Part shown: piece after piece, positions 1 through 20,393 of the stretch
How the letters are laid out: every line of letters starts with the position of its first letter
How positions within the stretch are numbered: position 1 is the first letter of the stretch
Assembly (NCBI GenBank): GCA_964457225.1
Contig: CAYWEM010000003.1
Coordinates: 114-64,113 of the forward strand
Source: an uncultured Clostridia bacterium
Lineage (GTDB): Bacteria; Acidobacteriota; Aminicenantia; UBA2199
DNA length: 64,000 nucleotides
Direction: 5' to 3'
Program-made: the position numbers and the translations under genes
The notes under the pieces: model-generated
Told to the model about the DNA's origin: nothing
Databases searched by the model: none
What the model saw: the letters and a program-made list of their open reading frames with translations, nothing else

Positions 1-60
1 AATCGAACTGATGACCTCATCCTTACCAAGGATGCGCTCTGCCGACTGAGCTACGAGGGC
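1..60 (-). tRNA. thrT: tRNA-Thr (anticodon GGT), 3' part cut by window edge
   Basis: Reverse complement reads GCCCTCGTAGCTCAGTCGGCAGAGCGCATCCTTGGTAAGGATGAGGTCATCAGTTCGATT. D-arm GCTC/GAGC. Anticodon stem CATCC/GGATG with loop TTGGTAA. Closely resembles E. coli thrT. Confidence 0.85.
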
Positions 61-65
61 AGATC

Positions 66-138
66 AGCGGGAGACGGGATTCGAACCCGCGACCTATAGC
101 TTGGAAGGCTATAGCTCTTCCAACTGAGCTACTCCCGC
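66..138 (-). tRNA. glyT: tRNA-Gly (anticodon TCC)
   Basis: Reverse complement reads GCGGGAGTAGCTCAGTTGGAAGAGCTATAGCCTTCCAAGCTATAGGTCGCGGGTTCGAATCCCGTCTCCCGCT. Anticodon stem ATAGC/GCTAT, loop CTTCCAA. T-loop GGTTCGAATCC. Confidence 0.9.
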
Positions 139-145
139 GTATAAC

Positions 146-228
146 TGGGCAGGGAAGGATTCGAACCTCCGAAGACTCGCGTCAACGGGTTTACAGCCCG
201 TCCCATTTGGCCACTCTGGAACCTGCCC
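146..228 (-). tRNA. tyrU: tRNA-Tyr (anticodon GTA), long variable arm
   Basis: Reverse complement reads GGGCAGGTTCCAGAGTGGCCAAATGGGACGGGCTGTAAACCCGTTGACGCGAGTCTTCGGAGGTTCGAATCCTTCCCTGCCCA. Anticodon loop CTGTAAA. Long variable arm is typical of Tyr. Confidence 0.9.
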
Positions 229-240
229 ATCAATACGCAT

Positions 241-313
241 AGCTGGCGAAGGGACTTGAACCCCCGACCGGCTGATTACAAATCAGCTGCTCTACCAGCT
301 GAGCTACGCCAGC
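241..313 (-). tRNA. thrU: tRNA-Thr (anticodon TGT)
   Basis: Reverse complement reads GCTGGCGTAGCTCAGCTGGTAGAGCAGCTGATTTGTAATCAGCCGGTCGGGGGTTCAAGTCCCTTCGCCAGCT. Anticodon stem GCTGA/TCAGC, loop TTTGTAA. Acceptor GCTGGCG/CGCCAGC. Confidence 0.9.
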
Positions 314-2131: not shown

Positions 2132-3997
2132 ATGAATCAACTGTACCTCTCGAAAAGCGATTTCAAGGTGGGCAGAAGCTGTCCAACCAAGCTGTACTAC
2201 AAAAAGCAGGGTTACCCCTCCCAACTGGAAGGAAGTGAATACCTGGAATTCCTGGCCGACGGCGGCTACCTGGTCGGCAAACTGGCCCAATTGCTGATTC
2301 CCGGGGGAGTGGAAATCCGCAGTGAGCTCGGCACCCGGGCCGCCCTGGAAGAAAGCGCCCGGCTGCTGGAGAGGGAAAACGCCATCGTCTACGAAGCAGC
2401 CGTGGCGGCAGGCGGCAAGCTGGCCCGGATTGACATCCTGGTGAAAAAAGGTCATTCGCTTGACCTGATCGAAGTCAAGTCCAAGTCTTACGACAGCCGG
2501 GAAGAGGTGTTCAGCAAGGACATGAAAGAATACTTCGAGGATGTCGCCTTTCAAGCCTGGCTGCTGCAGGAAGCCTATCCCAGGTTTGAAGTACGATCTT
2601 TCCTGATGCTGCCGGACAAAAGCCTGGCCACCCAAATCGAAGGCCTGGCCGGCTGGTTCAAAAAAAGCCTGGTTCAGCCGCCCGTCGATGACCGGTCACG
2701 CTTCCGCCGGATTGAGGTCGATTTCCTTTTCCCTGAGAATTCCCCCCAGCATCGCCGCTTACTCCAGGAAAACCTGCTGACCCGGATACCGGTGGACGTG
2801 GAAGTGCGCCGCCGCCTGCCGGAAGTTATGGCCGCCGGCGAGGAACTGCTAAAAAGCCTGAGCGATGGAAAAATCAGCAAGATTCCGCCCCGGATCGGCA
2901 GGAAGTGCTTCAACTGCGAATACCGGGGCCTGCCGGACGATCCCCGAGACGGTTTCCTGGAATGCTGGGGCGAACTTGGCCCGGTTGCTCCGCATGTTTC
3001 GGAGCTTTACCATGCCGGCACCCTGGGTGGGCGCGGCGGCTTCCTGGTGGAAGAAATGATCGCTTCAAAGCGGGTCAGCCTGCTGGACGTGCCCCCGGCC
3101 GCCCTGCTCAACAGCAAGGGCGATCTGTCATTCCGCGGCCGCAGGCAGCAGATCCAGATCGAGCATACCCGCGATAACAGCGAATGGGTTTCTCCCGAAT
3201 TAAAATCACTGCTCGGGGGACTGCGCTACCCGCTTCATTTCATCGACTTTGAAACCATCACCCCGGCCCTGCCCTTTCACAGTAGCATGCGGCCCTACGA
3301 AATGATCGCCTTTCAATGGAGCTGCCATACCGTGAACGGACCGGGCGAAGAACCTCGGCACGCGGAATGGCTGAACACGAAACCCTCCTTTCCCAACTTC
3401 GACTTCGCCCGCTCCCTGATGGAGCGGATCGGCACCGAAGGCACTCCCTTGATGTGGGCCAGTCATGAAAACACGGTTCTGCGGGTCATCCTCGAGCAAA
3501 TGGAAAAACGGGGACACCGGGATGAGGAACTCAGGCAATGGCTGTTGGGCATAACCCGGGACAAGGAAAAAAGAAGAACGGGCCGCCTGGTTGACCTGAA
3601 TCAAATTGCCCTGGATCACTTCTATCACCCGGACATGAAAGGCAAAACTTCGATCAAGCTGGTTCTGCCGGCCGTCTGGAACAACCACCCCGAACTGCAC
3701 CAAATACCCTGGTTCCGCAAGTATCTCAAGCTCGAAAACGGCGTGATCCAGAGCCCCTACAACGCTCTTTCCGATCTGAACGAAGAGCTGGAACGGGGCG
3801 GCGAAGTCATCAAGGAAGGAACCGGGGCCATGCGCGCTTATTACGAGATTAACTGCGGAGATCTCCGCGACGACCCGCAGGCCCGGGAAAAACGGCACAA
3901 AATGCTTTTACGGTATTGCGAGCTCGACACCATGGCCATGGTGATCATCTGGACCCACTGGATACAAGCCGCCGAGCTTAACAGTTCGGGCGCCTGA
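2132..3997 (+). CDS. PD-(D/E)xK (Cas4/RecB-like) nuclease domain fused to a DUF2779 domain; function unknown
   Basis: The N-terminus has nuclease motifs: D in ARIDILV, then LIEVKSKS giving E.K. The C-terminal half carries the DUF2779 signature LHFIDFETITPALPF...YEMIAFQWSCH. Confidence 0.75.
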   Translation: MNQLYLSKSDFKVGRSCPTKLYYKKQGYPSQLEGSEYLEFLADGGYLVGKLAQLLIPGGVEIRSELGTRAALEESARLLERENAIVYEAAVAAGGKLARIDILVKKGHSLDLIEVKSKSYDSREEVFSKDMKEYFEDVAFQAWLLQEAYPRFEVRSFLMLPDKSLATQIEGLAGWFKKSLVQPPVDDRSRFRRIEVDFLFPENSPQHRRLLQENLLTRIPVDVEVRRRLPEVMAAGEELLKSLSDGKISKIPPRIGRKCFNCEYRGLPDDPRDGFLECWGELGPVAPHVSELYHAGTLGGRGGFLVEEMIASKRVSLLDVPPAALLNSKGDLSFRGRRQQIQIEHTRDNSEWVSPELKSLLGGLRYPLHFIDFETITPALPFHSSMRPYEMIAFQWSCHTVNGPGEEPRHAEWLNTKPSFPNFDFARSLMERIGTEGTPLMWASHENTVLRVILEQMEKRGHRDEELRQWLLGITRDKEKRRTGRLVDLNQIALDHFYHPDMKGKTSIKLVLPAVWNNHPELHQIPWFRKYLKLENGVIQSPYNALSDLNEELERGGEVIKEGTGAMRAYYEINCGDLRDDPQAREKRHKMLLRYCELDTMAMVIIWTHWIQAAELNSSGA

Positions 3998-5641: not shown

Positions 5642-5839
5642 CAAGGAGCCGTAAAAATCGATTATGGTTCGTGATATGGTCAAGTCATCCAAAACCATTC
5701 TGAGAGGAACGGCATTGAACATCGCTATCTGCCGGATTTCCTGCTGGATTCCGAATAAAATCAACGGGGACAGGTAGAATTTCCGCCCGAAAAACCAGTC
5801 AAGAAAAATGATTTTCGGAGGGCGGTACCGGGCAGATTA

Positions 5840-6151
5840 TCATCTTTCGTTCTTCTGCAGGAAGTACGGGGGAATGAGCGCCGGCTTGACGACAACCTCC
5901 TGCCAGACCCCGGCCAGGATATAAGGCTCACGGTCCAGCCATTCCCGGCGTAGCTGATCCTCGGAGTCAAAACGGCAGACGATCATCGAACCGATCAAAG
6001 CACCGGCATCGTTCTGAATTCCGCAGGCGTAGAGCCATTTTCCATTCCCGTGGAACTCTTCAGCCAGCTCCAGGTGCCTGGGCCGCACCGCCATCCTCTT
6101 TTCCAGGGCATTCTCTTCTTTGCCGTCCCAGCCAATCACGATAAAATGCAT
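5840..6151 (-). CDS. YciI-like (YCII-related) small protein
   Basis: MHFIVIGWDGKEENALEKRMAVRPRHLE...GNGKWLYACGI has the length and motifs of the YciI/Dabb stress-protein family. Confidence 0.7.
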   Translation of the reverse strand: MHFIVIGWDGKEENALEKRMAVRPRHLELAEEFHGNGKWLYACGIQNDAGALIGSMIVCRFDSEDQLRREWLDREPYILAGVWQEVVVKPALIPPYFLQKNER

Positions 6152-6277
6152 GCCTTCCTCCCGGTGGATTAACCGCCACTATGATAGTTCCTTTCAGCAT
6201 CCTGAACAAGATAAGCCGGAAAAGCGGCCTGCCGACCAACTGTTCTAATGGAGTTTAAATCATCTCCTGGAAAAAGT

Positions 6278-8152
6278 TTATCCCGTTTCGACTCGGTTTC
6301 GGCCACATTCCTTGGCCTTGTAAAGAGCTTTATCCGCTTTCTTGATGCTGTCTTCAATACCTGCTTGGGCGTTGTACTCTGCGATTCCGAAAGACATGGT
6401 AATCCGCATGGAATGATTTTCCCAGGGCAGAGGAGTATCCTCCACCATCCGGCGAAGCTTTTCCGCCGCCCGTACACCCTGTTCCAGGGGGGTTCCCGGG
6501 AACATGAGCATAAACTCTTCACCCCCCCAGCGGCTGATGTGATCGTGTGGCCGGGTGTTTTGCCTGATCAGTTCAGCGATTTTAACCAGTACGGCGTCGC
6601 CGCAATCATGGCCCCATTGGTCGTTGAACTTCTTGAAGTGATCGATGTCCGTAAGCACAATGGTGAATGGCTCGCCCCGACGGGAGAAACGGGCTGTCTC
6701 CTTGCACAACTCCTCCATCATGGCCCGACGGTTCAGGAGTTGAGTCAGGGTATCAGTGCGGGATAAAGCGCGCATAACGTCAGCCATCCGTTTCTTGTTC
6801 CGGTAAAAAACGAAAAGCAGAATGACCAGGAGTAAAAACAACAGGGAAAGGGTTGACACAATAGTCAGAATGTAGCGGTTGATGCGGGCGTCTTTCAGCA
6901 AGGATTGATTTCTTAATTCCGCTTTTTCCAGTTCGAATTCCTTGTTGAGGGTATCAAAGCGGACCATCATCCGGGTGACCTGCTGAGAAAGATTGGCCTT
7001 GAACATCTCCTCATTCAAGGCCTGATGGACCTCCAGATGTTTCAGGGCCTGTCCTGTTTGACCCAGTCCTTTGTAAGCCTGAGACAGAAGCAGATGTGAT
7101 TTGATGACAACCAGCTTAAAGTTAGATCGGGCGGCGATGTCCAGGGCTTCAACAAGAAGAGGTAAAGCTTCGCTGAAGGCATTCTGATTAATCAGACTTC
7201 GACCAAGGTTGAGTAAATTATTGGTGTAGGTGATGTTCTGATCGTATTTTCTTAAGATTGCAACGGCTGTTTCAAAGTGGTCCCTGGAATTGTTCAGCGC
7301 ATCACGGTTGCCCGAAGACTCGTATTCGCCGTAAAAACGATCGCCCAGAACGGATTGAGCGTGAGCCACAAATATTTCCTGATTGGCGTCCCGGGCCAGT
7401 TCCAGCAGTTTGCGGCCGTAAAACTCACTGCTGGTGTAATCCTTCAGGTTGTTGTAAGTATAGGCCAGGTTGAACAGGGCCACCATTTCGTAATAGGGGT
7501 CATTTTCTATCAAGTTGTACGTTTTTTGAAAGTATTCCGCTGCATTGGGCCATTGTTCGAGCAGTGCATACACTCCGGCCAGGTTGCCGTAGAGAGTCAG
7601 CAGCATGTCTTTGTCTTCAATGCTGTTTTGCTGGATGACTTCCAGAGCCTTGTTGTAGAAGTCCAGAGAGGACTGGAAATCCGAATCTTCCTTGGCGCAG
7701 ATGCCTGCCGCCTGATAGGCTTTGATTTGTCCGATGGGTTCGCTTTGGGCCAGGGCGCGATCAATGGCCTCTTTATATGCATTCCTGGCCTCAAGGTGAT
7801 TGCCCTGATAGCTATGGGCAATGGCCGAGTTGCACAGGCCGGTAATCCACCCCATCTGATAATCATTCTTTTGGGACTGCTCAATCGCCTGGCTTGCATA
7901 GGCCAGGGATTGCCTGGCATTGTTATAGGAGGTTTTCAATGAAAGTTCGTTGAGAATATCCGCCTTTTCTTCGGAGGTTTCAGCCTGCTCAAGCTTTTTC
8001 AGCAGGATCTGTTCCGGAGTTGCGGGCGGCTCCTGCGCACCTGCCTGGGGATTGATCATGTAAAGGCCGAGCAGAATGACGGCAGGAATGATGAACCATC
8101 GCTGTTGGGCGCCAACCCGGCTTTCATAAGCTTTATTTCTGACCTTTTTCAT
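6278..8152 (-). CDS. Membrane-anchored TPR-repeat diguanylate cyclase (GGDEF domain, GGEEF variant)
   Basis: Signal/TM segment, multiple TPR-like repeats and a TM helix. The C-terminal GGDEF domain includes the active-site stretch RWGGEEFMLMF and ends in ...RVETG. Confidence 0.9.
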   Translation of the reverse strand: MKKVRNKAYESRVGAQQRWFIIPAVILLGLYMINPQAGAQEPPATPEQILLKKLEQAETSEEKADILNELSLKTSYNNARQSLAYASQAIEQSQKNDYQMGWITGLCNSAIAHSYQGNHLEARNAYKEAIDRALAQSEPIGQIKAYQAAGICAKEDSDFQSSLDFYNKALEVIQQNSIEDKDMLLTLYGNLAGVYALLEQWPNAAEYFQKTYNLIENDPYYEMVALFNLAYTYNNLKDYTSSEFYGRKLLELARDANQEIFVAHAQSVLGDRFYGEYESSGNRDALNNSRDHFETAVAILRKYDQNITYTNNLLNLGRSLINQNAFSEALPLLVEALDIAARSNFKLVVIKSHLLLSQAYKGLGQTGQALKHLEVHQALNEEMFKANLSQQVTRMMVRFDTLNKEFELEKAELRNQSLLKDARINRYILTIVSTLSLLFLLLVILLFVFYRNKKRMADVMRALSRTDTLTQLLNRRAMMEELCKETARFSRRGEPFTIVLTDIDHFKKFNDQWGHDCGDAVLVKIAELIRQNTRPHDHISRWGGEEFMLMFPGTPLEQGVRAAEKLRRMVEDTPLPWENHSMRITMSFGIAEYNAQAGIEDSIKKADKALYKAKECGRNRVETG

Positions 8153-9536: not shown

Positions 9537-10106
9537 TCACATCGGCTTTAAATTCTTGTCAAGCCTGTCAATAATCCTTTCCAGCCGGGCTTGACGGGTT
9601 TTTTCTGATTTGGCGTCAAGATAGAATCCGGCATACGCACGCTGTACCGAGTGCGACATGGCCAGTAAATTGCTGTAAGCAGGCTCATGCGGCAGAATGA
9701 TTTCCCTGAAAACCCGGATTTGTTCATCACTGATTACGGTTCGTTCGGCATTAGCCCATGAACCGTTTTTCCTGGCGCGTTCGACGGCTTGCAAACCTTG
9801 CCGGGTCATTAAACCTTTTTCCATGAGAGCCTGGGCCAGTTTTTTATTTTTTTCCGACCACTTGCTTTTCGGCAGGCGTCGCGCAAAGTACTTTTTGTAA
9901 GTACTTTCGTCAAGGGATTCAATCTGCCCGTCTATCCATCCGTGACAAAGCGCCTCCTCCAATGCATCGGCGGCAGAGAGCGTGAGGGGTTTTCCTTTTT
10001 TGCTGAAGAGCAACCATATGCCGTCGCTCTCTGCTCCATTCTCTCCAAGCCACTCCCGGAAGGCCTGCCTGTCAGTGAATGCCAGTATTTTGCTCATATC
10101 TTTCAA
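9537..10106 (-). CDS. YdeI/OmpD-associated family protein (PF13376-like)
   Basis: ALCHGWIDGQ...YFARRLPKSKWS...GLMTRQGL matches the pattern of the YdeI (bacteriocin-protection) family. Confidence 0.6.
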   Translation of the reverse strand: MKDMSKILAFTDRQAFREWLGENGAESDGIWLLFSKKGKPLTLSAADALEEALCHGWIDGQIESLDESTYKKYFARRLPKSKWSEKNKKLAQALMEKGLMTRQGLQAVERARKNGSWANAERTVISDEQIRVFREIILPHEPAYSNLLAMSHSVQRAYAGFYLDAKSEKTRQARLERIIDRLDKNLKPM

Positions 10107-10123
10107 AAAGATGTGAAACTGTA

Positions 10124-10510
10124 TTAATCAACAGGAGGTTTAGTCAACGACCAATGACTGTGGATGATTTTCCACTCGTTGTTTTCTTCAAGCCTGTACA
10201 CCTCCGTGCAATTCTCCTTCCAGAGAGTTTCGCCTGAATATGAGTGCAGATTGTAGGTCAAAACTGCCATTGTTTCGCTTTGTTGTACAACGGGATTTAT
10301 CATTTCAAATTTATCCATCTTTATTTTTCCACGCATGCTCTCATAGAATTCTTTTATCTTGTCCCAACCGTCAAGCCGCCTCTCATGGGCAGGATCGAAA
10401 TAAGTAAAGTCTTTCGAATAAAGCTCAAGATAGTGAGAAGGATTTCCATTGTGCCAGGCCTCAAGAGCAGCTGTCTCCAGGGCAATTATGGTTTCTGCAA
10501 TAGATTTCAT
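10124..10510 (-). CDS. SnoaL-like/NTF2-like (DUF4440) small protein
   Basis: MKSIAETIIALETAALEAWHNGNP...YFDP...EWKIIHSHWS. The internal Met at 10510 was chosen because a GGAGG RBS precedes it. The longer ORF runs into the intergenic region. Confidence 0.6.
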   Translation of the reverse strand: MKSIAETIIALETAALEAWHNGNPSHYLELYSKDFTYFDPAHERRLDGWDKIKEFYESMRGKIKMDKFEMINPVVQQSETMAVLTYNLHSYSGETLWKENCTEVYRLEENNEWKIIHSHWSLTKPPVD

Positions 10511-10823
10511 GAATCGACCTCCTTTTTCTGACAACTGTTTACCCAAAGTTCGGATGATAAGACCAGGGGGAATTCCTGTCAACCAATTGCTCCAAACCCT
10601 TGCGGCCACTTGCCAACCACTCCTTTTTGGAGGTGACAGAGCTGATCTGCTTTTTTCGCTGCGTCCCTTCTCATAATTCAGGATTTGATCTCTTTGCATT
10701 GTACGAACCTGTTCAAAACAATCCTTTCGGGTAGATTCTTACCTGAGGCATCGATACCATCTTCGGGTAGTTTTTCAGTGAGGCAATGCGAAGACTTGAC
10801 CCCCTGATATTTTTTTCTGTAAA

Positions 10824-11576
10824 ATGGCCGCAATGCGTATCAAGATCAACTTTGCCCTGGAAAGACAGATCAGGATTCCCATAGAGTACAACTACCACCT
10901 CTACCTGGCCCTGCGCCGCACCCTGTTCGCCTACCTGCGCCGCCACGAACCCGGCCTGCTCCAGAGCTACAAGTTGGATTTTCCGGCCATGACCTTTTCC
11001 CAGCTGCTGATTCCCCAGCGCCGGGTGGAATACGGCTTCATCAACATTGAAAGCCACTACCTGTCCATGCTGGTCGGCTCCCCGGAAGAGCGCTTCATCG
11101 AAATGCTGGCCGCGGCCGTCCAGGATCGCGGGCGTTTCAGCATTTACCGCCACCAGCTGGGCGTATCCAAGATCCAGATCCTGGAAGAACCATATTTCAG
11201 CCCGGTTATGAAGTGGAAATTGCTTTCCCCCTTTGTACTGGCCCGCCGCGAAAAGGGCCGGGTCAGCTTTGCCCGGCCCGGTGACGCAGATCTCAGCAGC
11301 CTGCTGGCCGCGAGCCTGATCTCCCGCTACGGCCGCCTGTTGAAACGCCGGCTTGGCCCGGATGAAATCAGCATCACCCTGAACCAGGATTACAGCCGCA
11401 GTCACAAGAACCTGACCAAGCTGATCAGCGTGCGCAACATCCATTACAAGGCCATTCACTGTCCCTTCACCCTGAAAGCCCCCATGGAAATAATCCGCCC
11501 TGCTTATGCCGGCGGTATCGGCGAAAAACCCCATTACGGTTTCGGCATGATCGAGCTGGCCAACCAAGGCGAGTGA
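10824..11576 (+). CDS. cas6: Cas6-type CRISPR-associated endoribonuclease homolog (orphan: no array or other cas genes in the window)
   Basis: 250 aa. N-terminus MRIKINFALERQIRIPIEYNYHLYLAL has the Cas6 ferredoxin-fold beta1 pattern with candidate catalytic Tyr and His. C-terminal glycine-rich loop GGIGEKPHYGFGMIEL closely matches the P. furiosus Cas6 loop GFGEKTSMGFGMV, as recalled from memory. The overlapping minus-strand ORF 10713..11672 is Q/G/A-rich antisense noise. Confidence 0.75.
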   Translation: MAAMRIKINFALERQIRIPIEYNYHLYLALRRTLFAYLRRHEPGLLQSYKLDFPAMTFSQLLIPQRRVEYGFINIESHYLSMLVGSPEERFIEMLAAAVQDRGRFSIYRHQLGVSKIQILEEPYFSPVMKWKLLSPFVLARREKGRVSFARPGDADLSSLLAASLISRYGRLLKRRLGPDEISITLNQDYSRSHKNLTKLISVRNIHYKAIHCPFTLKAPMEIIRPAYAGGIGEKPHYGFGMIELANQGE

Positions 11577-11607
11577 AAACGCCCGCTTACAGCCAAGCTT
11601 TTCCCCG

Positions 11608-12525
11608 ATGATCGAGGACTGCCCGAAAACCCTGCTGGCGGTCAACCCGGCGGCCGGACACGGCCGTGGCAAAAAGGTTTACCATGCCCTGGCCGCGGAC
11701 CTGGAACAATCGATTCCCGGCCTGGAAACAGTGATATCCGGCCGGCCCGGCCATACCCGGGAAATAGGACGCCAGGCCGCCCTGCGGGGTATCAGGCGAC
11801 TGATCTGCCTGGGCGGCGACGGTACTCCTTTCGAAGTACTCAACGGGTATTACAGCACCGTCGGGACGGACCGACGCCTGGAACTGGGCCTGATTCCGGC
11901 CGGAACCGGCAATTCCTTCCTGCGCGATTTCGGGCTCATAGGACCGCGCCAGGCATTAGATTCCATCCTGTCCGGGCGGAAGCGGCCGGTAGACCTGATG
12001 GAGTTCAACTGTCGGACCGGGTCTGAATTCAAGCCTTATTTCTCGCTCAACCTGGTCGGCATCGGACTGATCGCCGACATCCTGGAACTGACCAACAAGC
12101 GCTTCAAGTTCCTCGGCCCGATGGGCTACAGCCTGGCCGTACTGGTCAGCCTGGCCCGGGGCCTGCGCAATGAGATACGGATCAGCGGCGGCGGCCGGAC
12201 GCGGCAGGTGCTGAACAGCGCCCTGGTTATCAACAATTCCCGTTATACCGGGGGGCGCATGCTGATCGCACCCGGGGCCGATCCGGGCGACGGACTGGCT
12301 GAGCTGGTGCTGTTCAACCAGGTCAAGCGCCGGGACATAATCGGGATTTTCCGGCGCGTCTTTACCGGCACCCATACTGAACATCCCAAAGTAGAGCGGA
12401 TCAGCTGCGCGGAGTTCAACATCAGCGCCGAACCGGACCTGCAGGTCATGGCCGACGGAGAACTGCTGGGCCGCACCCCGCTGCAACTGAGGGTTCACCA
12501 GGGGCTCATAGATCTTCTGGCATGA
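11608..12525 (+). CDS. Diacylglycerol-kinase catalytic-domain lipid kinase (YegS/BmrU family)
   Basis: LLAVNPAAGHGRGKK...LICLGGDGTPFEVLNG...LGLIPAGTGNSF are the DAGK_cat motifs. Start is 32 nt after the cas6 stop. Confidence 0.85.
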   Translation: MIEDCPKTLLAVNPAAGHGRGKKVYHALAADLEQSIPGLETVISGRPGHTREIGRQAALRGIRRLICLGGDGTPFEVLNGYYSTVGTDRRLELGLIPAGTGNSFLRDFGLIGPRQALDSILSGRKRPVDLMEFNCRTGSEFKPYFSLNLVGIGLIADILELTNKRFKFLGPMGYSLAVLVSLARGLRNEIRISGGGRTRQVLNSALVINNSRYTGGRMLIAPGADPGDGLAELVLFNQVKRRDIIGIFRRVFTGTHTEHPKVERISCAEFNISAEPDLQVMADGELLGRTPLQLRVHQGLIDLLA

Positions 12526-13244
12526 AAACGGCTAAACGAATCATACTGACCCTGCCGGCCTGGCTGCTTGGTTTTCCGGCTTTCGCCTGCTGCTGCCTGC
12601 TGATCGTGCTGGTTTCACTCATCAGCCGGGGCCGACTGCTGGAAGCCGTACTCAAGTTCAGCTGCCGCCTGGTTTTGTTGCTTTGCGGCATCCGCACCAA
12701 GTGGGACGGCCTGGAGCATTTCGATCCCGGCCGTCAATACCTGATCATGATGAACCACGTCAACTTTCTGGACACCTTTGTCTTTTATGCCCGTTTCCCC
12801 GGACGGGCCCGGGCCCTGGAAGAAGAATCCCACTTCTCCTGGCCGCTTTACGGCGCCATGCTGCGGCGCATCGGCATGATTCCGATCAACCGCCGCCAAC
12901 CGGCCCAGGCCCTGAAAAACCTGGAAAAAAGCGCGGACCTGATTCTGAAAGTTCCGGGGCAATCAATCGTCATCATGCCGGAAGGGACCCGCAGTCGCGA
13001 CGGACGCCTGGGCCCCTTCAAACGGGGCGGCTTCCTGCTGGCCCTGCAGACCGGACTGGAGATACTGCCCGTGGTTCAGCAAGGAGCCCACGACATCAAC
13101 CGCAAAGGCAGTCTGCTGATCAACCCGGGCCGGGTCAAGCTGGAGATACTGGCGCCGATCGCCACCCGGGAGCATTCCCGGCGGGATTTGGACAAACTGC
13201 TGGAAAAAACCCGAAAAGCTTTTCTCAGCAAGCTGGGAGAATGA
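12522..13244 (+). CDS. plsC: 1-acyl-sn-glycerol-3-phosphate acyltransferase (PlsC/LPLAT family) with N-terminal TM anchor
   Basis: HxxxxD motif in MMNHVNFLDT, then PEGTRSRDG. ATGA start/stop overlap with the upstream kinase gene. Confidence 0.85.
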   Translation: MKTAKRIILTLPAWLLGFPAFACCCLLIVLVSLISRGRLLEAVLKFSCRLVLLLCGIRTKWDGLEHFDPGRQYLIMMNHVNFLDTFVFYARFPGRARALEEESHFSWPLYGAMLRRIGMIPINRRQPAQALKNLEKSADLILKVPGQSIVIMPEGTRSRDGRLGPFKRGGFLLALQTGLEILPVVQQGAHDINRKGSLLINPGRVKLEILAPIATREHSRRDLDKLLEKTRKAFLSKLGE

Positions 13245-13279
13245 AACCAAGCGCCTTTTTGTGACCCGGTTGAAGAATT

Positions 13280-15361
13280 ATGCTACAATTTAAGATGAAA
13301 AAAATTCTGCTATTCCTGCTGCTGCTTTCCCTGCCGGCGGCGGTTTTCAGTTACGTGGGCCCGGGCGCCGGTTTCGCCTTCGTTGGTTCTTTCCTGTTCA
13401 TTTTCCTGGCCTTTATCCTGGCTGCGGTCAACCTGTTGACCTTTCCGCTGCGCCTGCTGTTCCGCAACCTGAAAAAACTGCTGAAAAAACAGAAAGCCCG
13501 TTTTTCGCGGGTACTGGTCATCGGTTTCGACGGCATGGATTACAATCTCCTGCGCCACTACCTGCAGGATAAATCCTTTCGTGACCATTTGCCGAATTTC
13601 AGCGCCTTGAGAGATTCCGGATCCTTTCTGCCCCTGCTGAGCAGCGAGCCCCCCATCTCCCCCGTGGCCTGGTCGACTTTCGCCACCGGGGTGAATCCCG
13701 GCAAACACAACATCTTCGACTTCCTGGCCACCGACCGGGCTACTTACATGCCCAAGCTGGCCTGCTCGGAAATCCTGCCCGGCGGCAAATGCCTGAGATT
13801 CGGTAAATTGCAGATACCCCTGCCCGGCGGCGGCATTGAAGCCAAGAGAAAATCCCTGTCTTTCTGGAAAACTGCGGCCGGGCACGGAGTTTACAGCCAG
13901 GTTCTGCGCGTGCCCTTCACCTTTCCACCGGAGTCCTTTTACGGCACCATGCTGGCCGGGCTGGGTACCCCGGACCTGCGCGGCACCCAGGGCAGTTTTA
14001 CTTTTTTCAGCACCGAAGCGGAAAAGGACAGCGGCATCAGCGAGGGATTGATCGAGAAACTGGAGCCGGGCCCGGACGGTAGCTACCGAGGGCGCATCCG
14101 GGGGCCGCGCAATCCTTTCATGACCGATCAGCCCCTGCTGTATCTGCCATTCCAGGTATCCCGGGACCTGCAAGCCGGCACGGCCACGGTCATCCTGGAA
14201 GACAAGCAAATCGTACTGCGGCCCGGTGAATTTTCAGCCTGGATGCCGCTGAAATTCCGCACCGGTTTGCTCTCGATTTCGGGAATCGCCCAATGGCTGC
14301 TGAAAGACCTGGATCCCCTGAAAATCTACCTGTCGCCTTTGAACATCGATCCGGAAGCCCCTTCCATGCCGGTTTCCCAGCCCAAGACTTTCGCCGCCTA
14401 CCTGGCCAAGCGCCTGGGTCCCTTCGCCACCCTGGGCATGGCCGAGGACACCTGGGCCCTGAACGAAGGCCTGCTGAACGAGGGGGAATTCCTGGCTCAG
14501 ACCTGGCAGATGCAGCAGGAGAGGGAAAATATCTTTTTCGACGGCCTGGACAAGATAAAAACAGGACTGCTGGTGGCGGTGTTCGAAGCCACCGACCGGG
14601 TTCAGCACATGTTCTGGCGCGACAACGGCCAAGACGGTTCACCGCTCCCCGGACCCGAGGTGTTTGAAAGCTACCGGCGCATGGACGAACTACTGGGCCG
14701 AGTCCTGCCTCGCATCAAACCAGACGACCTCCTGCTGGTGGTTTCCGATCACGGCTTCAGTTCTTTCAGGCGCGAGTTCCACCTCAACAGCTGGCTGAAG
14801 CAGGAAGGCTACCTGGTACTGAAGCAGGGTTCCACCAGCAGCGCCAAGTGGTACGCCGAAGTTGACTGGTCTAGAAGCCGGGCCTACGGCCAGGGCCTGA
14901 ACGGAATTTACCTGAACCTGAAAAACCGCGAACGCCAGGGCATAGTAGAGCCCGGGGCCGAGGCCGAAAAACTCAAAGCGGAGATCAGGGATAAACTTTT
15001 GAAATTGGTCGATCCGGAAACCGGAATGCGCCCGCTGCGCCAGGTCCAGGCGGCCGACCGCCTCTACCGGGGACCTTACACCGGAAATGCCCCCGACCTG
15101 GTCATGGGTTATGAACGCGGCTTCCGGGTTTCCTGGGAATCTTCGGTAAACGTGGTCAGCGATAAAATATTCACCGACAACACCAGGCCCTGGAGCGGCG
15201 ATCATGCCTTCACCCGCGACCAGGTGCCCGGCATTCTATTCTGCAACCGCGCGGTAGCGACGGCCGACCCCGGGCTGATCGACATCGCGCCGACGGTACT
15301 CAGCCAGTTCGGCATCGCCAGGCCGGCTTACCTGGAGGGCCGTGATCTGGGCATCGGATAA
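13280..15361 (+). CDS. Alkaline-phosphatase-superfamily phosphodiesterase (type I phosphodiesterase/nucleotide pyrophosphatase, ENPP-like), membrane-anchored
   Basis: VIGFDGMDYN...ISPVAWSTFATGVNPGKHNIFDF...VVSDHGF. Two N-terminal hydrophobic helices. 693 aa. Confidence 0.8.
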   Translation: MLQFKMKKILLFLLLLSLPAAVFSYVGPGAGFAFVGSFLFIFLAFILAAVNLLTFPLRLLFRNLKKLLKKQKARFSRVLVIGFDGMDYNLLRHYLQDKSFRDHLPNFSALRDSGSFLPLLSSEPPISPVAWSTFATGVNPGKHNIFDFLATDRATYMPKLACSEILPGGKCLRFGKLQIPLPGGGIEAKRKSLSFWKTAAGHGVYSQVLRVPFTFPPESFYGTMLAGLGTPDLRGTQGSFTFFSTEAEKDSGISEGLIEKLEPGPDGSYRGRIRGPRNPFMTDQPLLYLPFQVSRDLQAGTATVILEDKQIVLRPGEFSAWMPLKFRTGLLSISGIAQWLLKDLDPLKIYLSPLNIDPEAPSMPVSQPKTFAAYLAKRLGPFATLGMAEDTWALNEGLLNEGEFLAQTWQMQQERENIFFDGLDKIKTGLLVAVFEATDRVQHMFWRDNGQDGSPLPGPEVFESYRRMDELLGRVLPRIKPDDLLLVVSDHGFSSFRREFHLNSWLKQEGYLVLKQGSTSSAKWYAEVDWSRSRAYGQGLNGIYLNLKNRERQGIVEPGAEAEKLKAEIRDKLLKLVDPETGMRPLRQVQAADRLYRGPYTGNAPDLVMGYERGFRVSWESSVNVVSDKIFTDNTRPWSGDHAFTRDQVPGILFCNRAVATADPGLIDIAPTVLSQFGIARPAYLEGRDLGIG

Positions 15362-15399
15362 GAGCCGGCCCGACCTTGTGGTAAAATCAAGGTGAAAAA

Positions 15400-17370
15400 A
15401 TGAAAAGACGTGAATTTCTAAGTAAAAGCATGCTCTGCGGGGCGGCCGCCCTGCTGCCCGGCGGCCTGGGACTGGCCGGATCGGCAAAAAAAAACATGGT
15501 CATCCTGGGCATAGACGGCATGGATCCTCACCGGGTAATGCGCCTGATGCGGAAAGGCCTGATGCCGGCCATGTCCCGGCTGGCCGAAACGGGAACTTTC
15601 ACCATGATGCGCTCGACCATCCCCCCCCAGAGCCCGGTGGCCTGGGCCAGTTTCATCAGCGGCGCCGATCCGGGGCGCACCGGCATTTTCGACTTCATCC
15701 ACCGCCAGCCGGAAGACTACCAGCCGATTTTTTCCCAGAGCGAAACCTTGCCGCCGGCCTGGCCCCTGAAGATAGGTAAATACAACATCCCCCTGAAAAG
15801 CGGTAAAACCATCCTGAAACGCGAGGGAACTTCTTTCTGGCAGCACCTGGAGGAAAAAGGCATCCCGGCCACCGTGATCAAGATTCCCAGCAACTTCCCA
15901 CCGGACCGCACCAAACAACGCACCATATCAGGCATGGGCACTCCGGACCTGCTGGGCACCTACGGCATCTACACGCTCTACACTTCCGATGAAAGGGAAG
16001 CCCGGCGAAAACTGCCGGCGGCCAATGTCAGTTACGCCTACATAGATGAAAACGACGTCATGGAAGGAGAAATAGAGGGACCGGTCAACGACCTGACCGC
16101 CGACAAGCCTCCGATTTACATTCCTTTCAAGGTTTACGTCGACCGGGTCAACCGCACCATCCGCATCGACATCCAGAAGCGCACCCTGCTGCTGGCCGCC
16201 GGAAAATACTCCGAATGGGTGGAAATAGACTTTTCCCTGATTCCTGGCCTGGCCTCGATCCAGGGCATGGTCAGGTTTTACCTGCTGAATTTCGATGAAC
16301 GATTCCGACTCTACGTTTCTCCAATCCACATCAACCCGGGCCGGCCGGCCGTGCCGATCAGCACCCCGGATTCCTACGCCGCAGACCTGGCCGCCGCAAT
16401 CGGCCCCTTTCACACCATCGGCCTGCCGGCCGACACCAAGGCCCTAAGTGACGGCACCTTCAACCTGGAACAGTTCCTGACCCAGTCCAATTCGGTGCTG
16501 GCAGAGAGCCGGCGTCTCTTCTTTCACGAACTGGCCGCTTTTCTGAGTCGCAGGGAAGGCCTTTTCTTCCACTATTTTTCTTCCCTGGACCAGAACCAGC
16601 ACATGTTCTGGGCCCTGGAAGACCAGGAACACCCATATTTCCAGGCGGAAGAAGCCCGCCGCTTCGCCGGTCTCACCGACCAACAGTACCGGGAATACGA
16701 CCAACTGCTGGCCGAAGTACAGCGCCTGCTGCCAGCGGACATCCCCCTGATGGTCATTTCCGACCACGGTTTCGCCCCCTTCAGGCGCCGGGTCAACATC
16801 AACAACTGGCTGGCTGAAAACGGTTACCTGGCCTTGCGCCGCGGCCGTCCCCAGGATGGCGGGACCCTGTTTTCCGAGGTCGACTGGGGACGCTCCCGGG
16901 CCTATGCCCTGGGCCTGAACGGCCTTTACCTGAACCTGGCCGGTCGTGAAGCCGAGGGCCTGGTTAAGGAAGAGGACCGGGAAAAGCTGCTGCGGGAAAT
17001 ATCCAGCGGGCTGGAAAACATCACAGACCCTGTTTCCGGCAGCCGGGCGGTCAGCCGGGCCTACGTAAGCAGCGAGCATTTTTCGCCGGATTACCTTGAT
17101 CGCGCCCCGGACATCATCGTCGGTTTCGAGCGCGGTTTCCGCATCAGCGATGATTCGGCCCTGGGTGTGTTCGGTGCTGAGCTGATCTCGGACAATCTGA
17201 ACTGGTGGTCGGCCGACCATTGCGTGGATCCGGCCCGGGTCCCGGCCCTGTTCGCCGCCAACTTCAAGATAAACGAATCTTTCCCGGCCATGGTCGACCT
17301 GGCCCCGACCATATTGAAAAACTTCAATCTGGCCGTTCCAAAGGCCATGACCGGCAAAGCTCTCATCTGA
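15400..17370 (+). CDS. Alkaline-phosphatase-superfamily phosphodiesterase (ENPP-like), paralog of the upstream gene with a Tat-type signal
   Basis: MKRREFLSKSMLCGAAALL has a twin-arginine motif. ILGIDGMDPH...QSPVAWASFISGADPGRTGIFDF...VISDHGF. 656 aa. Confidence 0.8.
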   Translation: MKRREFLSKSMLCGAAALLPGGLGLAGSAKKNMVILGIDGMDPHRVMRLMRKGLMPAMSRLAETGTFTMMRSTIPPQSPVAWASFISGADPGRTGIFDFIHRQPEDYQPIFSQSETLPPAWPLKIGKYNIPLKSGKTILKREGTSFWQHLEEKGIPATVIKIPSNFPPDRTKQRTISGMGTPDLLGTYGIYTLYTSDEREARRKLPAANVSYAYIDENDVMEGEIEGPVNDLTADKPPIYIPFKVYVDRVNRTIRIDIQKRTLLLAAGKYSEWVEIDFSLIPGLASIQGMVRFYLLNFDERFRLYVSPIHINPGRPAVPISTPDSYAADLAAAIGPFHTIGLPADTKALSDGTFNLEQFLTQSNSVLAESRRLFFHELAAFLSRREGLFFHYFSSLDQNQHMFWALEDQEHPYFQAEEARRFAGLTDQQYREYDQLLAEVQRLLPADIPLMVISDHGFAPFRRRVNINNWLAENGYLALRRGRPQDGGTLFSEVDWGRSRAYALGLNGLYLNLAGREAEGLVKEEDREKLLREISSGLENITDPVSGSRAVSRAYVSSEHFSPDYLDRAPDIIVGFERGFRISDDSALGVFGAELISDNLNWWSADHCVDPARVPALFAANFKINESFPAMVDLAPTILKNFNLAVPKAMTGKALI

Positions 17371-17383
17371 ATCAGGAGGATCA

Positions 17384-17572
17384 ATGGCAAAAAAAGTCAA
17401 ACTCTCCAGCGAGGCCCTGCGCAAGGCCGATGAGATAATAGCCCTGCAGGGTTATTCCTCATTGGAAGAAATGGTCGAGGAACTGATCGCCCGTGAATTC
17501 GAGAAGATCAAATCCGGTGATGACCCGGAAGAAATGGCTGAAAGGCTGAGCGGCCTCGGTTACATTTCCTGA
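17384..17572 (+). CDS. Small (62 aa) acidic protein, possibly ribbon-helix-helix-like
   Basis: GGAGG RBS. MAKKVKLSSEALRKADEIIALQGYSSLEEMVEELIAREF has a strand-helix-helix pattern. Its stop overlaps the next start (TGATG). Confidence 0.5.
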   Translation: MAKKVKLSSEALRKADEIIALQGYSSLEEMVEELIAREFEKIKSGDDPEEMAERLSGLGYIS

Positions 17573-18393
17573 TGCTTTACCAGCTGCATCACCTGCTTCA
17601 GCGGGGGCTGGACATCCTGCTGACTCCACTGGACCGCCTCTCGCCCTGGCTTGGCCTCGGCGGCCTGGCCCTGCTGAGCACCTTCCTGGTTCTGCCCGTA
17701 TACCGCTTTCTCACCCGGCCTGAAAGGCTCAAGGCCTGTAAAAACCAGATCAAGGCCAATATCCTGGCCATCCGCATATACCGCGATTTTTGGCGGGTCA
17801 TCGTGGCTTCCTTCGGCCGCAGCCTGGGCTGGACCTCGCTTTATTTCGCCCAGCACCTGCTGCCCCTGCTGCTGCTGGTGCCCCTGCTCTGGCCCCTGCT
17901 GCTGCAGATGGACGCCCGTTACGGCCGCCGAACCTTTCACGAAGGGGAAGCTTTCGTTCTGCACGCCGTAATGCAAGACGACCTGGCTGACTCAGAACTT
18001 CGATTGCTGGACAGCGAGGCGGTCAAACCGCTGATGAACCCGGTACGGGTCAAGGCCCTGGGCGAAATGAACTGGCAACTGGCCCCGACCAACGAGGGCA
18101 GGCATACAATCCGGCTGGAAATCAACGGGCGGGAGATCGAAAAGGAAGTAGTCGCCGGGCGGCATGTCGGTATGCTTTCCTGGCGTCGGGCGGTTCCCGA
18201 CCTGGAAAGCGCCCTGCTGGCCCCCCTGGAAAAGTCCCTGCCGTCTTCAGCGGGCCTGAAGGAAATCAGCTTCGCCTATCCCCCGGCCCGCATGAAACTG
18301 GGGCCGTTTTCCGGGCACTGGCTGATCCCCTACCTGCTGCTGGTCCTGGTCCTGGCCCTCTGCTTCAGAAAAAGGTTCGGAGTCGAGTTTTAG
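17572..18393 (+). CDS. Hypothetical integral membrane protein
   Basis: Several hydrophobic helices (LALLSTFLVLPV, LLPLLLLVPLLWPLLL, LIPYLLLVLVLAL). Translationally coupled to the upstream small ORF. Confidence 0.55.
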   Translation: MLYQLHHLLQRGLDILLTPLDRLSPWLGLGGLALLSTFLVLPVYRFLTRPERLKACKNQIKANILAIRIYRDFWRVIVASFGRSLGWTSLYFAQHLLPLLLLVPLLWPLLLQMDARYGRRTFHEGEAFVLHAVMQDDLADSELRLLDSEAVKPLMNPVRVKALGEMNWQLAPTNEGRHTIRLEINGREIEKEVVAGRHVGMLSWRRAVPDLESALLAPLEKSLPSSAGLKEISFAYPPARMKLGPFSGHWLIPYLLLVLVLALCFRKRFGVEF

Positions 18394-19298: not shown

Positions 19299-20393
19299 TT
19301 ACAATCTCAGTATCCAATGCTTTAACATTACATCCTGAATTGTATATGCCCCGTTTTTCAGAACGATCTCTTTTTTTATGAGCGAGTCAAGGGATTTTGT
19401 CACCTGGGAGGGAGTTGAAAAACTCACGGATTTTAAGGAATCCGCTGAATACAGTTCCCTGCCCTCATTTATGGCAATCAGCTTAAGGGTTTTTCGCTGA
19501 TTCAGGGTGAGACTGTCCCAGAGAGTCATGAATTCATTTTCATTACGTTTCAGTATTTCATTATGAGTCCTGTTTATTATTTCTTGATCCGTCAGATCAC
19601 TGTCCCAGAGAAAAAAGAAAAATTGCTGAATATACATTGGGTGCTCTTCGCAGAGTTTGATAACGTCAAGTATCTGCTTTTCTGAAATTTTTTTGTGTTT
19701 GCGGAATAATCCTTTTACCCAGCCGACGTACTCAGCTTCATCTATTTCAGGTAATGGACAACTCTGGGCCAGTTTATAAAAGGCTTTGCCTTTGGAATTG
19801 AACATACCGGCAAGTATATGCCGCCTGCTTCCGGCAAATACATAGGATATTCGATTGTGTTTCTGAATGATTCCCCGAAGCCGTTTTTCGAATTCACCTT
19901 TTGAATAGTTTTCGATCTCCTGGAACTCATCAAAAACAACCACCATTTTATTCTTTACCGAATACTTCTGTAACAGGTTCATGGCATTTTCAAGAAGTAT
20001 CGTTTTGTCTTTTGATCTGAAAGCCGGACTCAAGGACGGGAGTCCGGTTGCCGGATCTATCGATATTGAAAAATTCGCCGAGGTAAAAAACTCACGCGCG
20101 GCTTTTATCAGCTTCTCAGCTCCGGATTCAAGCTGGCCGGCGCTTTTCATGACAGCTGTGATGAAATCCTCTTCGCTTACAGTACCGTAAAGGTCGATAT
20201 ACATTTTTACCGTATCAGGATTCAGCCTGGAGAACACCTGGTATATCAATGATGTTTTCCCCATCCTCCTGTTTGCGTAAAGCATCACGTTCTGAGAGTT
20301 TTCAATGAGATTGATAAGGTCTTCCTGCTCCTTCTCCCGGTTACAGAACCGATCTCCGGTAACGATTCCTGAAAAGCTGAAGGGATTGCCCAT
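19299..20393 (-). CDS. ATP-binding protein of the PF01637 (ATPase_2)/DUF234 family, encoded on an AT-rich island
   Basis: Walker A NRRMGKTS and Walker B VVVFDEFQ. C-terminal DUF234-like winged-helix region. Local GC about 38% versus about 60% in the flanks. Confidence 0.8.
   Translation of the reverse strand: MGNPFSFSGIVTGDRFCNREKEQEDLINLIENSQNVMLYANRRMGKTSLIYQVFSRLNPDTVKMYIDLYGTVSEEDFITAVMKSAGQLESGAEKLIKAAREFFTSANFSISIDPATGLPSLSPAFRSKDKTILLENAMNLLQKYSVKNKMVVVFDEFQEIENYSKGEFEKRLRGIIQKHNRISYVFAGSRRHILAGMFNSKGKAFYKLAQSCPLPEIDEAEYVGWVKGLFRKHKKISEKQILDVIKLCEEHPMYIQQFFFFLWDSDLTDQEIINRTHNEILKRNENEFMTLWDSLTLNQRKTLKLIAINEGRELYSADSLKSVSFSTPSQVTKSLDSLIKKEIVLKNGAYTIQDVMLKHWILRL

Follow-up and report, generated by a model that had tools for sequence, protein, structure and literature searches.

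The window analysed in this work is a stretch of 64,000 nucleotides (nt) of the contig CAYWEM010000003.1 (GenBank assembly GCA_964457225.1, positions 114 to 64,113 of the forward strand), deposited as an uncultured Clostridia bacterium and placed by GTDB in the Aminicenantia of the Acidobacteriota. It carries a gene encoding a genuine Cas6-fold protein, and neither a CRISPR array nor any other cas gene has been detected around it. The gene is the first of seven genes closely packed on the plus strand, which an initial annotation, made by reading the sequence alone, had interpreted as an operon of the phospholipid-remodelling type, into which Cas6 would have been recruited. The gene and the site preceding it are located as follows.

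10796 to 10825, plus strand: promoter-like site TTGACC-18 nt-TAAAAT (consensus scan, 10/12 matches), ending 7 nt before ATG 10833
10833 to 11576, plus strand: Cas6-like gene, 247 amino acids (aa), tandem ferredoxin/RAMP fold, glycine-rich loop GGIGEKPHYGFGM, canonical triad absent

The Cas6-like protein and its active site

The open reading frame (ORF) 10824-11576 exceeds the curated cutoffs of both Cas6 profiles, TIGR01877 cas_cas6 (72.5 bits, cutoff 58.65) and PF01881 (55.8 bits, cutoff 23), and is matched over its full length by the PADLOC Cas6b model (E 2.5e-35). Full-length alignments were also obtained by phmmer with PDB sequences, namely those of Pyrococcus PH0350 (3qjj), 3ufc and 5yi6. 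The AlphaFold2 model, computed from an input of 87 sequences, has a mean pLDDT of 96.9 and a pTM of 0.92, and the best 27 matches retrieved with it by Foldseek from the PDB are, with no exception, Cas6 proteins. The highest TM-scores are those of the non-catalytic Pyrococcus proteins 3qjj and 3ufc (0.82-0.83; 0.82-0.85 for the group formed by 3qjj/3qjp and 3ufc), 5yi6 and the Cas6 of Pyrococcus furiosus (PfuCas6, 3i4h) reaching 0.78-0.79. The protein is made of two tandem ferredoxin/RRM (RAMP) domains followed by a C-terminal glycine-rich loop. By family and by fold (TM about 0.8) it is a genuine Cas6-fold protein, and the Cas6 hallmarks recognized at first sight are borne out by TIGR01877, PF01881, PADLOC Cas6b and Foldseek. 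Two details had to be amended. The glycine-rich loop, described as closely matching that of PfuCas6, is indeed present, but the letters quoted for the P. furiosus protein were not quite exact, the sequence of PfuCas6 reading GFGEKNSLGFGMV. Likewise, the reading frame assigned to the gene stands, but its start does not. Since all homologs begin at the position corresponding to ATG 10833 (MRIKINF), and ATG 10824 overlaps the -10-like box, the true start is probably at 10833. In one of the related loci (L013) the gene has been called from a GTG, but its start is probably an ATG located 9 nt further upstream.

The catalytic residues of PfuCas6 are Tyr31, His46 and Lys52 (PMC3652601). Their positions were mapped onto the family by profile alignment to 3pkm, including six sequences of the small clade to which the window protein belongs (see below) and 81 ordinary Cas6 relatives. 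In the latter the three columns are largely occupied as expected, by Y (66/81), H (64/81) and K (63/81), respectively. In the six clade sequences the Tyr31 column reads R/R/R/R/K/M, Lys52 is replaced by Pro in five, and the His46 column corresponds to a gap in all of them, the loop bearing the residue having been deleted. An invariant His was sought throughout the clade alignment, and none was found. To our knowledge, the catalytic His is near-universal among Cas6 enzymes. Judging from the alignment, the canonical Tyr/His/Lys triad is lost in the clade, which accordingly does not exhibit the catalytic residues of Cas6. The Tyr and His residues proposed in the initial annotation as catalytic candidates are not conserved either, as the His of the YNYHLY motif varies within the clade.

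Other parts of the protein have been retained. G228, G230, G236, G238 and M239 of the glycine-rich loop (GxGxxxxxGFGM) are invariant in the clade, and the S132-P133 motif is likewise kept. In the profile alignment, the flH-egy segment is missing in the clade as well as in 3qjj and 3ufc, the clade proteins thus combining a Cas6 fold with the absence of the catalytic His loop, as proteins of the Cas6nc type do. Pyrococcus PH0350 (3qjj/3qjp) and PfuCas6nc (3ufc), which are the best structural matches and in which the stretch otherwise occupied by the His loop is shortened in like manner, have been described as non-catalytic (PMC3652601, PMC3902920). The Pyrococcus homologs are archaeal, and only 23-24% identical to the clade proteins, so that the loss of the His loop in the clade was probably independent; the clade proteins are bacterial, and inherited at a housekeeping locus. 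The Cas6-like protein is likely non-cleaving, and from the features retained we infer that it binds RNA.

CRISPR context, clade and chromosomal site

No CRISPR array was detected in the 64 kb window by TRF, a repeat finder, Rfam or a k-mer scan, and no cas family was found among the 59 other window ORFs of at least 170 aa. What had been stated in this respect from simple inspection of the sequence is therefore correct. A weak PADLOC Cas10 match (E 3e-5, residues 554-620) was rejected, as it falls on a GGDEF domain and reflects palm-domain similarity, the protein concerned being of the TPR-GGDEF type (6278-8152, minus strand). This protein is a diguanylate cyclase, and a syntenic TPR-GGDEF gene is found upstream in locus L007, too.

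The survey was extended to nine non-redundant loci hosting clade genes, 172 kb in total. Arrays are missing in all of them, whereas among ordinary Cas6 relatives (21-30% identical) drawn from the same scan, 6 loci out of 11 have arrays of typical 30-nt repeats near the gene. Among the called genes of the clade loci no cas Pfam family was recognized, except for a faint Cas_Cas4 match on the PD-(D/E)XK nuclease gene adjacent to cas6 in L013. Overall, in none of the nine loci is the clade gene accompanied by an array or a cas gene at a distance of up to about 10 kb, and the non-CRISPR neighbourhood first noticed in the window is shared by every clade relative inspected. A solitary repeat-like element was also looked for by means of the 30-nt repeats taken from the closest ordinary loci of Cas6, but the best matches, in the window as in the clade loci, were no better than shuffles. 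Neither repeated nor conserved hairpins were found in the cas6 leader or in the intergenic spacers. No description of a solo Cas6 clade was found in literature searches on solo, orphan or stand-alone Cas6. We infer that the clade gene is independent of CRISPR.

The clade is small and distinct. When 1.84 billion representatives were searched exhaustively with HMMER, 538 Cas6 relatives were identified, just five of which at E <1e-30, the next being found at E 8e-24. The five are the window protein and P0003-P0006, at 33-41% identity, and the clade corresponds to five 50%-identity clusters. P0002, encoded at loci L002 and L017, is a further homolog, 70% identical to the window protein. Searching genome contigs with a four-sequence clade alignment yielded just three loci, the genome of the window not being among them. 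A member of the P0003 cluster, HNX97610.1, is named by NCBI as Cas6 of Candidatus Aminicenantes, and the clade belongs, at least in part, to this group of Acidobacteriota. Cas6-like ORFs are full-length and intact in all eight lineages (8/8), and 27 residues are invariant among proteins 32-70% identical. The ratio of nonsynonymous to synonymous substitution rates (dN/dS) is 0.36 for the pair window-L017, and 0.28 for the pair L003-L014. Values of 0.21, 0.37 and 0.12 were calculated for the neighbouring PD-(D/E)XK, M50B and S20 genes, respectively. The cas6-like gene is under purifying selection, with a dN/dS within the range of the genes flanking it.

In three divergent lineages the cas6-like gene follows rpsT, which encodes ribosomal protein S20, and a gene encoding a PD-(D/E)XK nuclease, PilZ and PspC genes being inserted in one of the three. 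The nuclease (250 aa) is Cas4/RecB-like, and features four invariant Cys residues, as well as D..(D/E)xK and QxxxY motifs. The Cas_Cas4 Pfam cutoff is reached by one copy, and faintly. The rpsT-PD-(D/E)XK block is located as follows.

L003, 8178 to 9211
L007, 8327 to 9362
L013, 8929 to 9944
L034-L036, about 5690 to 6777

Between lineages, the identity of the Cas6-like protein tracks that of the nuclease (75 vs 76%, 40 vs 43%, 30 vs 35% and 32 vs 38%), which indicates that the two genes have long been co-inherited at that site. The maintenance of the gene order in three lineages, together with the congruent divergence, is the reason why the clade gene appears to be vertically inherited. Arrangements of cas6 and cas4 genes are known from the adaptation modules of type I-B and I-D systems (PMC5704561). 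The nuclease is, however, far more widespread than its neighbour. It is found in 104 clusters, mostly labelled Aminicenantes where the organism is named; it is directly preceded by rpsT in all seven Aminicenantes-type loci examined (7/7), and maintains this position in genomes lacking the cas6-like gene (L034-L036), a 9.1 Mb genome among them. Pairing is not obligatory, and the notion of a two-gene module was rejected on these grounds. The function of the nuclease is plausibly not linked to CRISPR. The rpsT-PD-(D/E)XK pair thus forms a block of core synteny, at the end of which the cas6-like gene is an occasional tenant. In the window itself, no homolog of either the nuclease or S20 is found near cas6. 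A 621-aa DUF2779 protein encoded at 2132-3997 (plus strand) shows, in its N-terminus, a weak similarity to the nuclease of L013 (tblastn E 0.009).

A different explanation of these data is that the clade gene is a conventional cas6, displaced from its system, whose product would bind in trans the repeats of a CRISPR array remote from it, and perhaps process them. Cas6 proteins act in trans for many systems of type III, and for some of type I. The score of the protein is above the cutoff of TIGR01877, an equivalog model of Cas6, and NCBI calls HNX97610.1 Cas6. The nearest relatives outside the clade (about 30% identity; L020-L022) adjoin arrays, made of 30-nt repeats ending in ATTGAAAC, the closest structures, those of Pyrococcus Cas6nc, have been solved in the RNA-bound form (PDB title 'One RAMP protein binding different RNA substrates'), and the search for arrays covers, of this genome, 64 kb of a contig of 268 kb. 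Yet, a conventional enzyme would hardly be expected to miss the canonical triad and any invariant His, or to be found in nine loci out of nine with no array or cas gene within about 10 kb, when 6 of 11 ordinary loci have one. The position near rpsT in three divergent lineages, a core chromosomal site at which divergence has been congruent, is also unlike that of typical mobile cas modules. The displacement of a conventional cas6 is, on the whole, unlikely, though worth being taken seriously.

The downstream genes and their transcription

The genes following cas6 in the window, and a promoter-like site found among them, are listed below.

11608 to 12525, plus strand: YegS/DAGK-family lipid kinase (dgk); TIGR00147 127.6 bits (cutoff 118.65), PF00781, PF19279
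12522 to 13244, plus strand: PlsC/LPLAT-type acyltransferase (plsC); PF01553 78.3 bits, NHVNFLD (HX4D) and PEGTRS motifs
13261 to 13289, plus strand: internal promoter-like site GTGACC-17 nt-TACAAT, with TG before the -10 hexamer, which ends 5 nt before ATG 13295 (scan)
13295 to 15361, plus strand: membrane-anchored phosphohydrolase of the AlkP superfamily, ENPP-like (ENPP1); PF01663 108.2 bits, earlier start at 13280
15400 to 17370, plus strand: second PF01663 phosphohydrolase (ENPP2); 110.8 bits, twin-arginine signal RREFL in the translation
17384 to 17572, plus strand: 62-aa protein, possibly ribbon-helix-helix; weak match to the NikR N-terminus (E 0.012), strong AGGAGG ribosome-binding site upstream
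17572 to 18393, plus strand: 273-aa membrane protein; no Pfam, NCBIfam or PADLOC match

The description initially given of this region is, for the most part, accurate. The seven plus-strand ORFs are all present, gaps do not exceed 40 nt, and the start and stop codons of two gene pairs overlap, in an ATGA at 12522-12525 (kinase/acyltransferase) and a TGATG at 17570-17574 (62-aa protein/membrane protein). Spacing along the seven genes measures 31, -4, 35, 38, 13 and -1 nt; cas6 and the kinase gene are adjacent, as reported, at a distance of 31 rather than 32 nt. The assignment of the kinase to the DAGK family is sustained by TIGR00147, above cutoff, and that of the acyltransferase to the PlsC type holds, through PF01553, at the family level, the equivalog-level model TIGR00530 scoring 82.3 bits, under its cutoff of 102.95. 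The tandem of ENPP-like proteins, one membrane-anchored, the other endowed with a twin-arginine signal, is confirmed by PF01663 and the RREFL motif. ENPP1 probably starts at 13295 rather than at 13280. As to the 62-aa protein, the ORF is real, and a ribbon-helix-helix nature is a possibility suggested by the weak NikR match listed above. ARAGORN calls a tRNA-Trp at 16577-16650 (minus strand), within the coding region of ENPP2; this is probably a false positive, and Rfam finds none at gathering threshold.

From this organization, Cas6 could be viewed as a working part of a seven-gene lipid/phosphoester operon, with the task, for example, of cutting the polycistronic mRNA or maturing a leader endowed with structure. 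The genes lie on one strand, gaps measure at most 38 nt, two start/stop overlaps occur, and no convincing terminator-like site is found inside the cluster. If this were a functional unit, its order should be found in relatives. The arrangement cas6-dgk-plsC-ENPP is not. In the 70% identical relative (L002/L017), represented in two independent metagenomes, neither dgk nor plsC is found at this position, and ENPP1 comes directly after the cas6-like gene, the cas6-ENPP1 adjacency being the sole part of the order which recurs. In other lineages the genes downstream are unrelated. They encode, in the P0003 lineage as well as in L014, a membrane protein of the M50B family and a protein of the PLD family. 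The order cas6-like, M50B and then cardiolipin-synthase-like PLD can be seen in L003 at 10081-12239, and similarly in L004-L006, L014 and L019. Convergent genes face the clade gene in the P0004 lineage (HAD) and in the P0006 lineage (ABC transporter); the clade gene precedes Memo in the P0005 lineage, where two genomes have upstream genes unlike each other, and rmlC-epimerase-rmlD in L018.

ENPP1 has in turn a distribution of its own. The family includes 6130 matches at E <1e-20, the best being 54-60% identical, several of which, among those named, are labelled Candidatus Aminicenantes. Together with the name of the P0003 cluster member, these labels make it probable that the window itself stems from Aminicenantes, or from a near relative. 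In the Aminicenantes loci examined, the order around the gene is ackA | ENPP1-PilZ, and cas6, dgk, plsC and a second ENPP gene are all missing. More than 6000 homologs of ENPP1, set against five Cas6 clusters, do not speak for partners in a common system.

Promoter-like signals are also at variance with a single unit. The promoter-like site upstream of cas6 has a -10-like hexamer ending 7 nt before ATG 10833, which suggests that the cas6-like mRNA is leaderless, or near-leaderless, and synthesized from its own promoter. In seven of the nine clade loci inspected, window included, the start codon of the cas6-like gene is preceded, at a distance of 5-7 nt, by a hexamer of this sort (TAAAAT, TACAAT, TAGAAT or TATATT), which is listed for several loci (the window, L003, L007, L011, L013, L014, L017 and L037), and persists even where the end of the upstream gene is just 44 nt away. 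A second element, an extended -10-like TGcTA(C/A)AAT found 5 nt before the ATG of ENPP1, is conserved in the window (13281-13297, TGcTACAAT by consensus match), L017 (about 2256-2274) and L033 (about 7985-8003), and so extends as far as an Aminicenantes homolog of 60% identity. In these bacteria transcription without a leader may be widespread. Because of its conservation directly before the ATG, the element is probably a promoter of ENPP1's own, possibly a leaderless one. In contrast, the scan detected neither promoter-like nor terminator-like sites between cas6 and dgk, and the two genes are therefore probably co-transcribed. Plausibly, cas6-dgk-plsC are a recent, lineage-specific tricistronic unit, and the ENPP genes a separate one. 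The close spacing from which a single transcript had been deduced is thus real, but the deduction is weakened by the conserved element before ENPP1.

Nor is there support for a role in processing the transcript, as the hypothesis that Cas6 acts on a structured RNA meets with the lack of conserved hairpins in the leader and spacers, and with the loss of the catalytic triad. The adjacency to ENPP1 in the closest relative and the cardiolipin-synthase-like gene of the P0003 lineage can be invoked in favour of the operon, but the closest relative is the one which lacks dgk and plsC, and five other lineages have unrelated genes downstream. A Cas6 working in a lipid/phosphoester operon is consequently improbable. 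The lipid/phosphoesterase neighbourhood is an accident of gene order, restricted to one lineage, rather than a functional system, since ENPP genes would have their own promoter, and dgk and plsC would ride on the cas6 transcript.

A few additional features of the window are recorded here. An ATPase_2/AAA protein, matching the PADLOC candidate defence family PDC-S27 (E 3.7e-8), is encoded 1 kb past the cluster (19299-20393, minus strand), and a gene with faint ATPase_2 matches follows rpsT-PD-(D/E)XK in L034. The PADLOC matches obtained for mad2 (two ORFs, E 8e-25), for mad3 (E 2e-28) and for mad8 (E 5e-14) are probably due to response-regulator and histidine-kinase domains of a generic kind, as two Response_reg proteins are recognized by Pfam; the ORFs involved are not among the 20 which were re-scanned. 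A cluster of tRNA genes (Thr, Tyr, Gly and a truncated fourth) is located at the edge of the window (1-313, minus strand). Genes encoding S-adenosylmethionine synthetase, S-adenosylhomocysteine hydrolase, PanB/PanC and phosphofructokinase are also present, and this housekeeping content indicates that the window is part of a chromosome, not of a mobile element.

A proposed Cas6 derivative outside CRISPR

The explanation which we favour, and to which we would give about even credence, is that the protein is a stand-alone derivative of Cas6 which binds a specific RNA through the inter-domain cleft and the glycine-rich loop, does not cleave it, or cleaves it at a non-canonical site, and acts outside a CRISPR-cas locus. 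According to this view, the RNA-binding architecture, formed by the two ferredoxin/RAMP domains and the C-terminal glycine-rich loop, would have been kept, and the protein would recognize RNA by sequence or structure through the conserved cleft and loop. It would be either non-cleaving, as Pyrococcus Cas6nc, or able to cleave through a non-canonical site. The gene, located away from CRISPR-cas loci, would be transcribed from its own promoter into a leaderless mRNA. In this genome dgk and plsC would have come to ride on the cas6 transcript, the ENPP genes using a promoter of their own. A more detailed scenario can be put forward, if more tentatively. A Cas6 scaffold may have been withdrawn from CRISPR immunity, to become in a lineage of Aminicenantes a stand-alone chromosomal gene, expressed from a leaderless mRNA, whose product, having lost the triad, would bind a non-CRISPR cellular RNA; its ancestral site would be downstream of the rpsT-Cas4-like pair.

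Several considerations weigh against this interpretation. SsoCas6 and some other active Cas6 enzymes have no catalytic His (PMC3652601); some His-less Cas6 proteins do cleave RNA, and the loss of the triad is therefore no proof that cleavage has been lost. Because the alignment has indels around helix alpha1, the Tyr31 column is less certain than the deletion of the His loop. A candidate RNA ligand was not found, either as a conserved hairpin near the gene or as a solitary repeat above chance. The region inspected is a 64 kb window of a 268 kb contig, and other parts of the genome may contain an array, or else a module of type I or type III. Promoter and leaderless calls are consensus matches only. 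Finally, phospholipid-related genes flank the clade gene in two lineages (dgk/plsC in the window, PLD in L003), an occurrence which has been treated here as a coincidence.

That a CRISPR-Cas system was lost, leaving the gene behind as a decaying remnant deprived of any current function, is the least probable of the alternatives, as the loss of catalytic residues, the lack of CRISPR context and a patchy distribution (about 6 Cas6-like 90% clusters vs 104 PD-(D/E)XK clusters) are countered by ORFs intact and full-length in eight lineages, 27 invariant residues, dN/dS values of 0.28-0.36, within the flanking-gene range, a very confident fold prediction and a conserved promoter-like element.

The Cas6 derivative envisaged here can be compared with known systems. 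With the Cas6 endoribonucleases of type I-B and III systems, represented by PfuCas6 (3i4h/3pkm), 5yi6 and the PADLOC Cas6b model, the clade shares the full-length profile match, the RAMP fold and the GxGxxxxxGFGM loop. It differs from them in lacking the His46 loop, in having Arg or Lys for Tyr31, and Pro for Lys52, in five of six sequences each, and in the absence of arrays or cas genes nearby. Genes of cas families may be encoded outside CRISPR-cas loci, as known for solo-Cas4 and cas1-solo. Like these, the clade gene is persistently found away from CRISPR-cas, and in three lineages it is located directly after a 4-Cys PD-(D/E)XK gene. Orphan cas6 genes, and non-catalytic Cas6 homologs, are already known. 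What is new is a bacterial clade of triad-less Cas6 proteins, apparently inherited vertically, and consistently located off CRISPR loci.

The idea of a lipid-remodelling operon containing Cas6, with which the analysis of this DNA had started, fails on comparison with relatives whether or not the clade serves CRISPR. If a remote array were served, the protein would be a His-less bacterial Cas6 of biochemical interest, otherwise ordinary. If the clade truly works outside CRISPR, the fold of a Cas6 ribonuclease would have been kept by selection for another role involving RNA, in parallel to solo-Cas4 and cas1-solo, and we found no paper describing a comparable case in bacteria. The clade would then provide a compact RNA-binding module with a new specificity.

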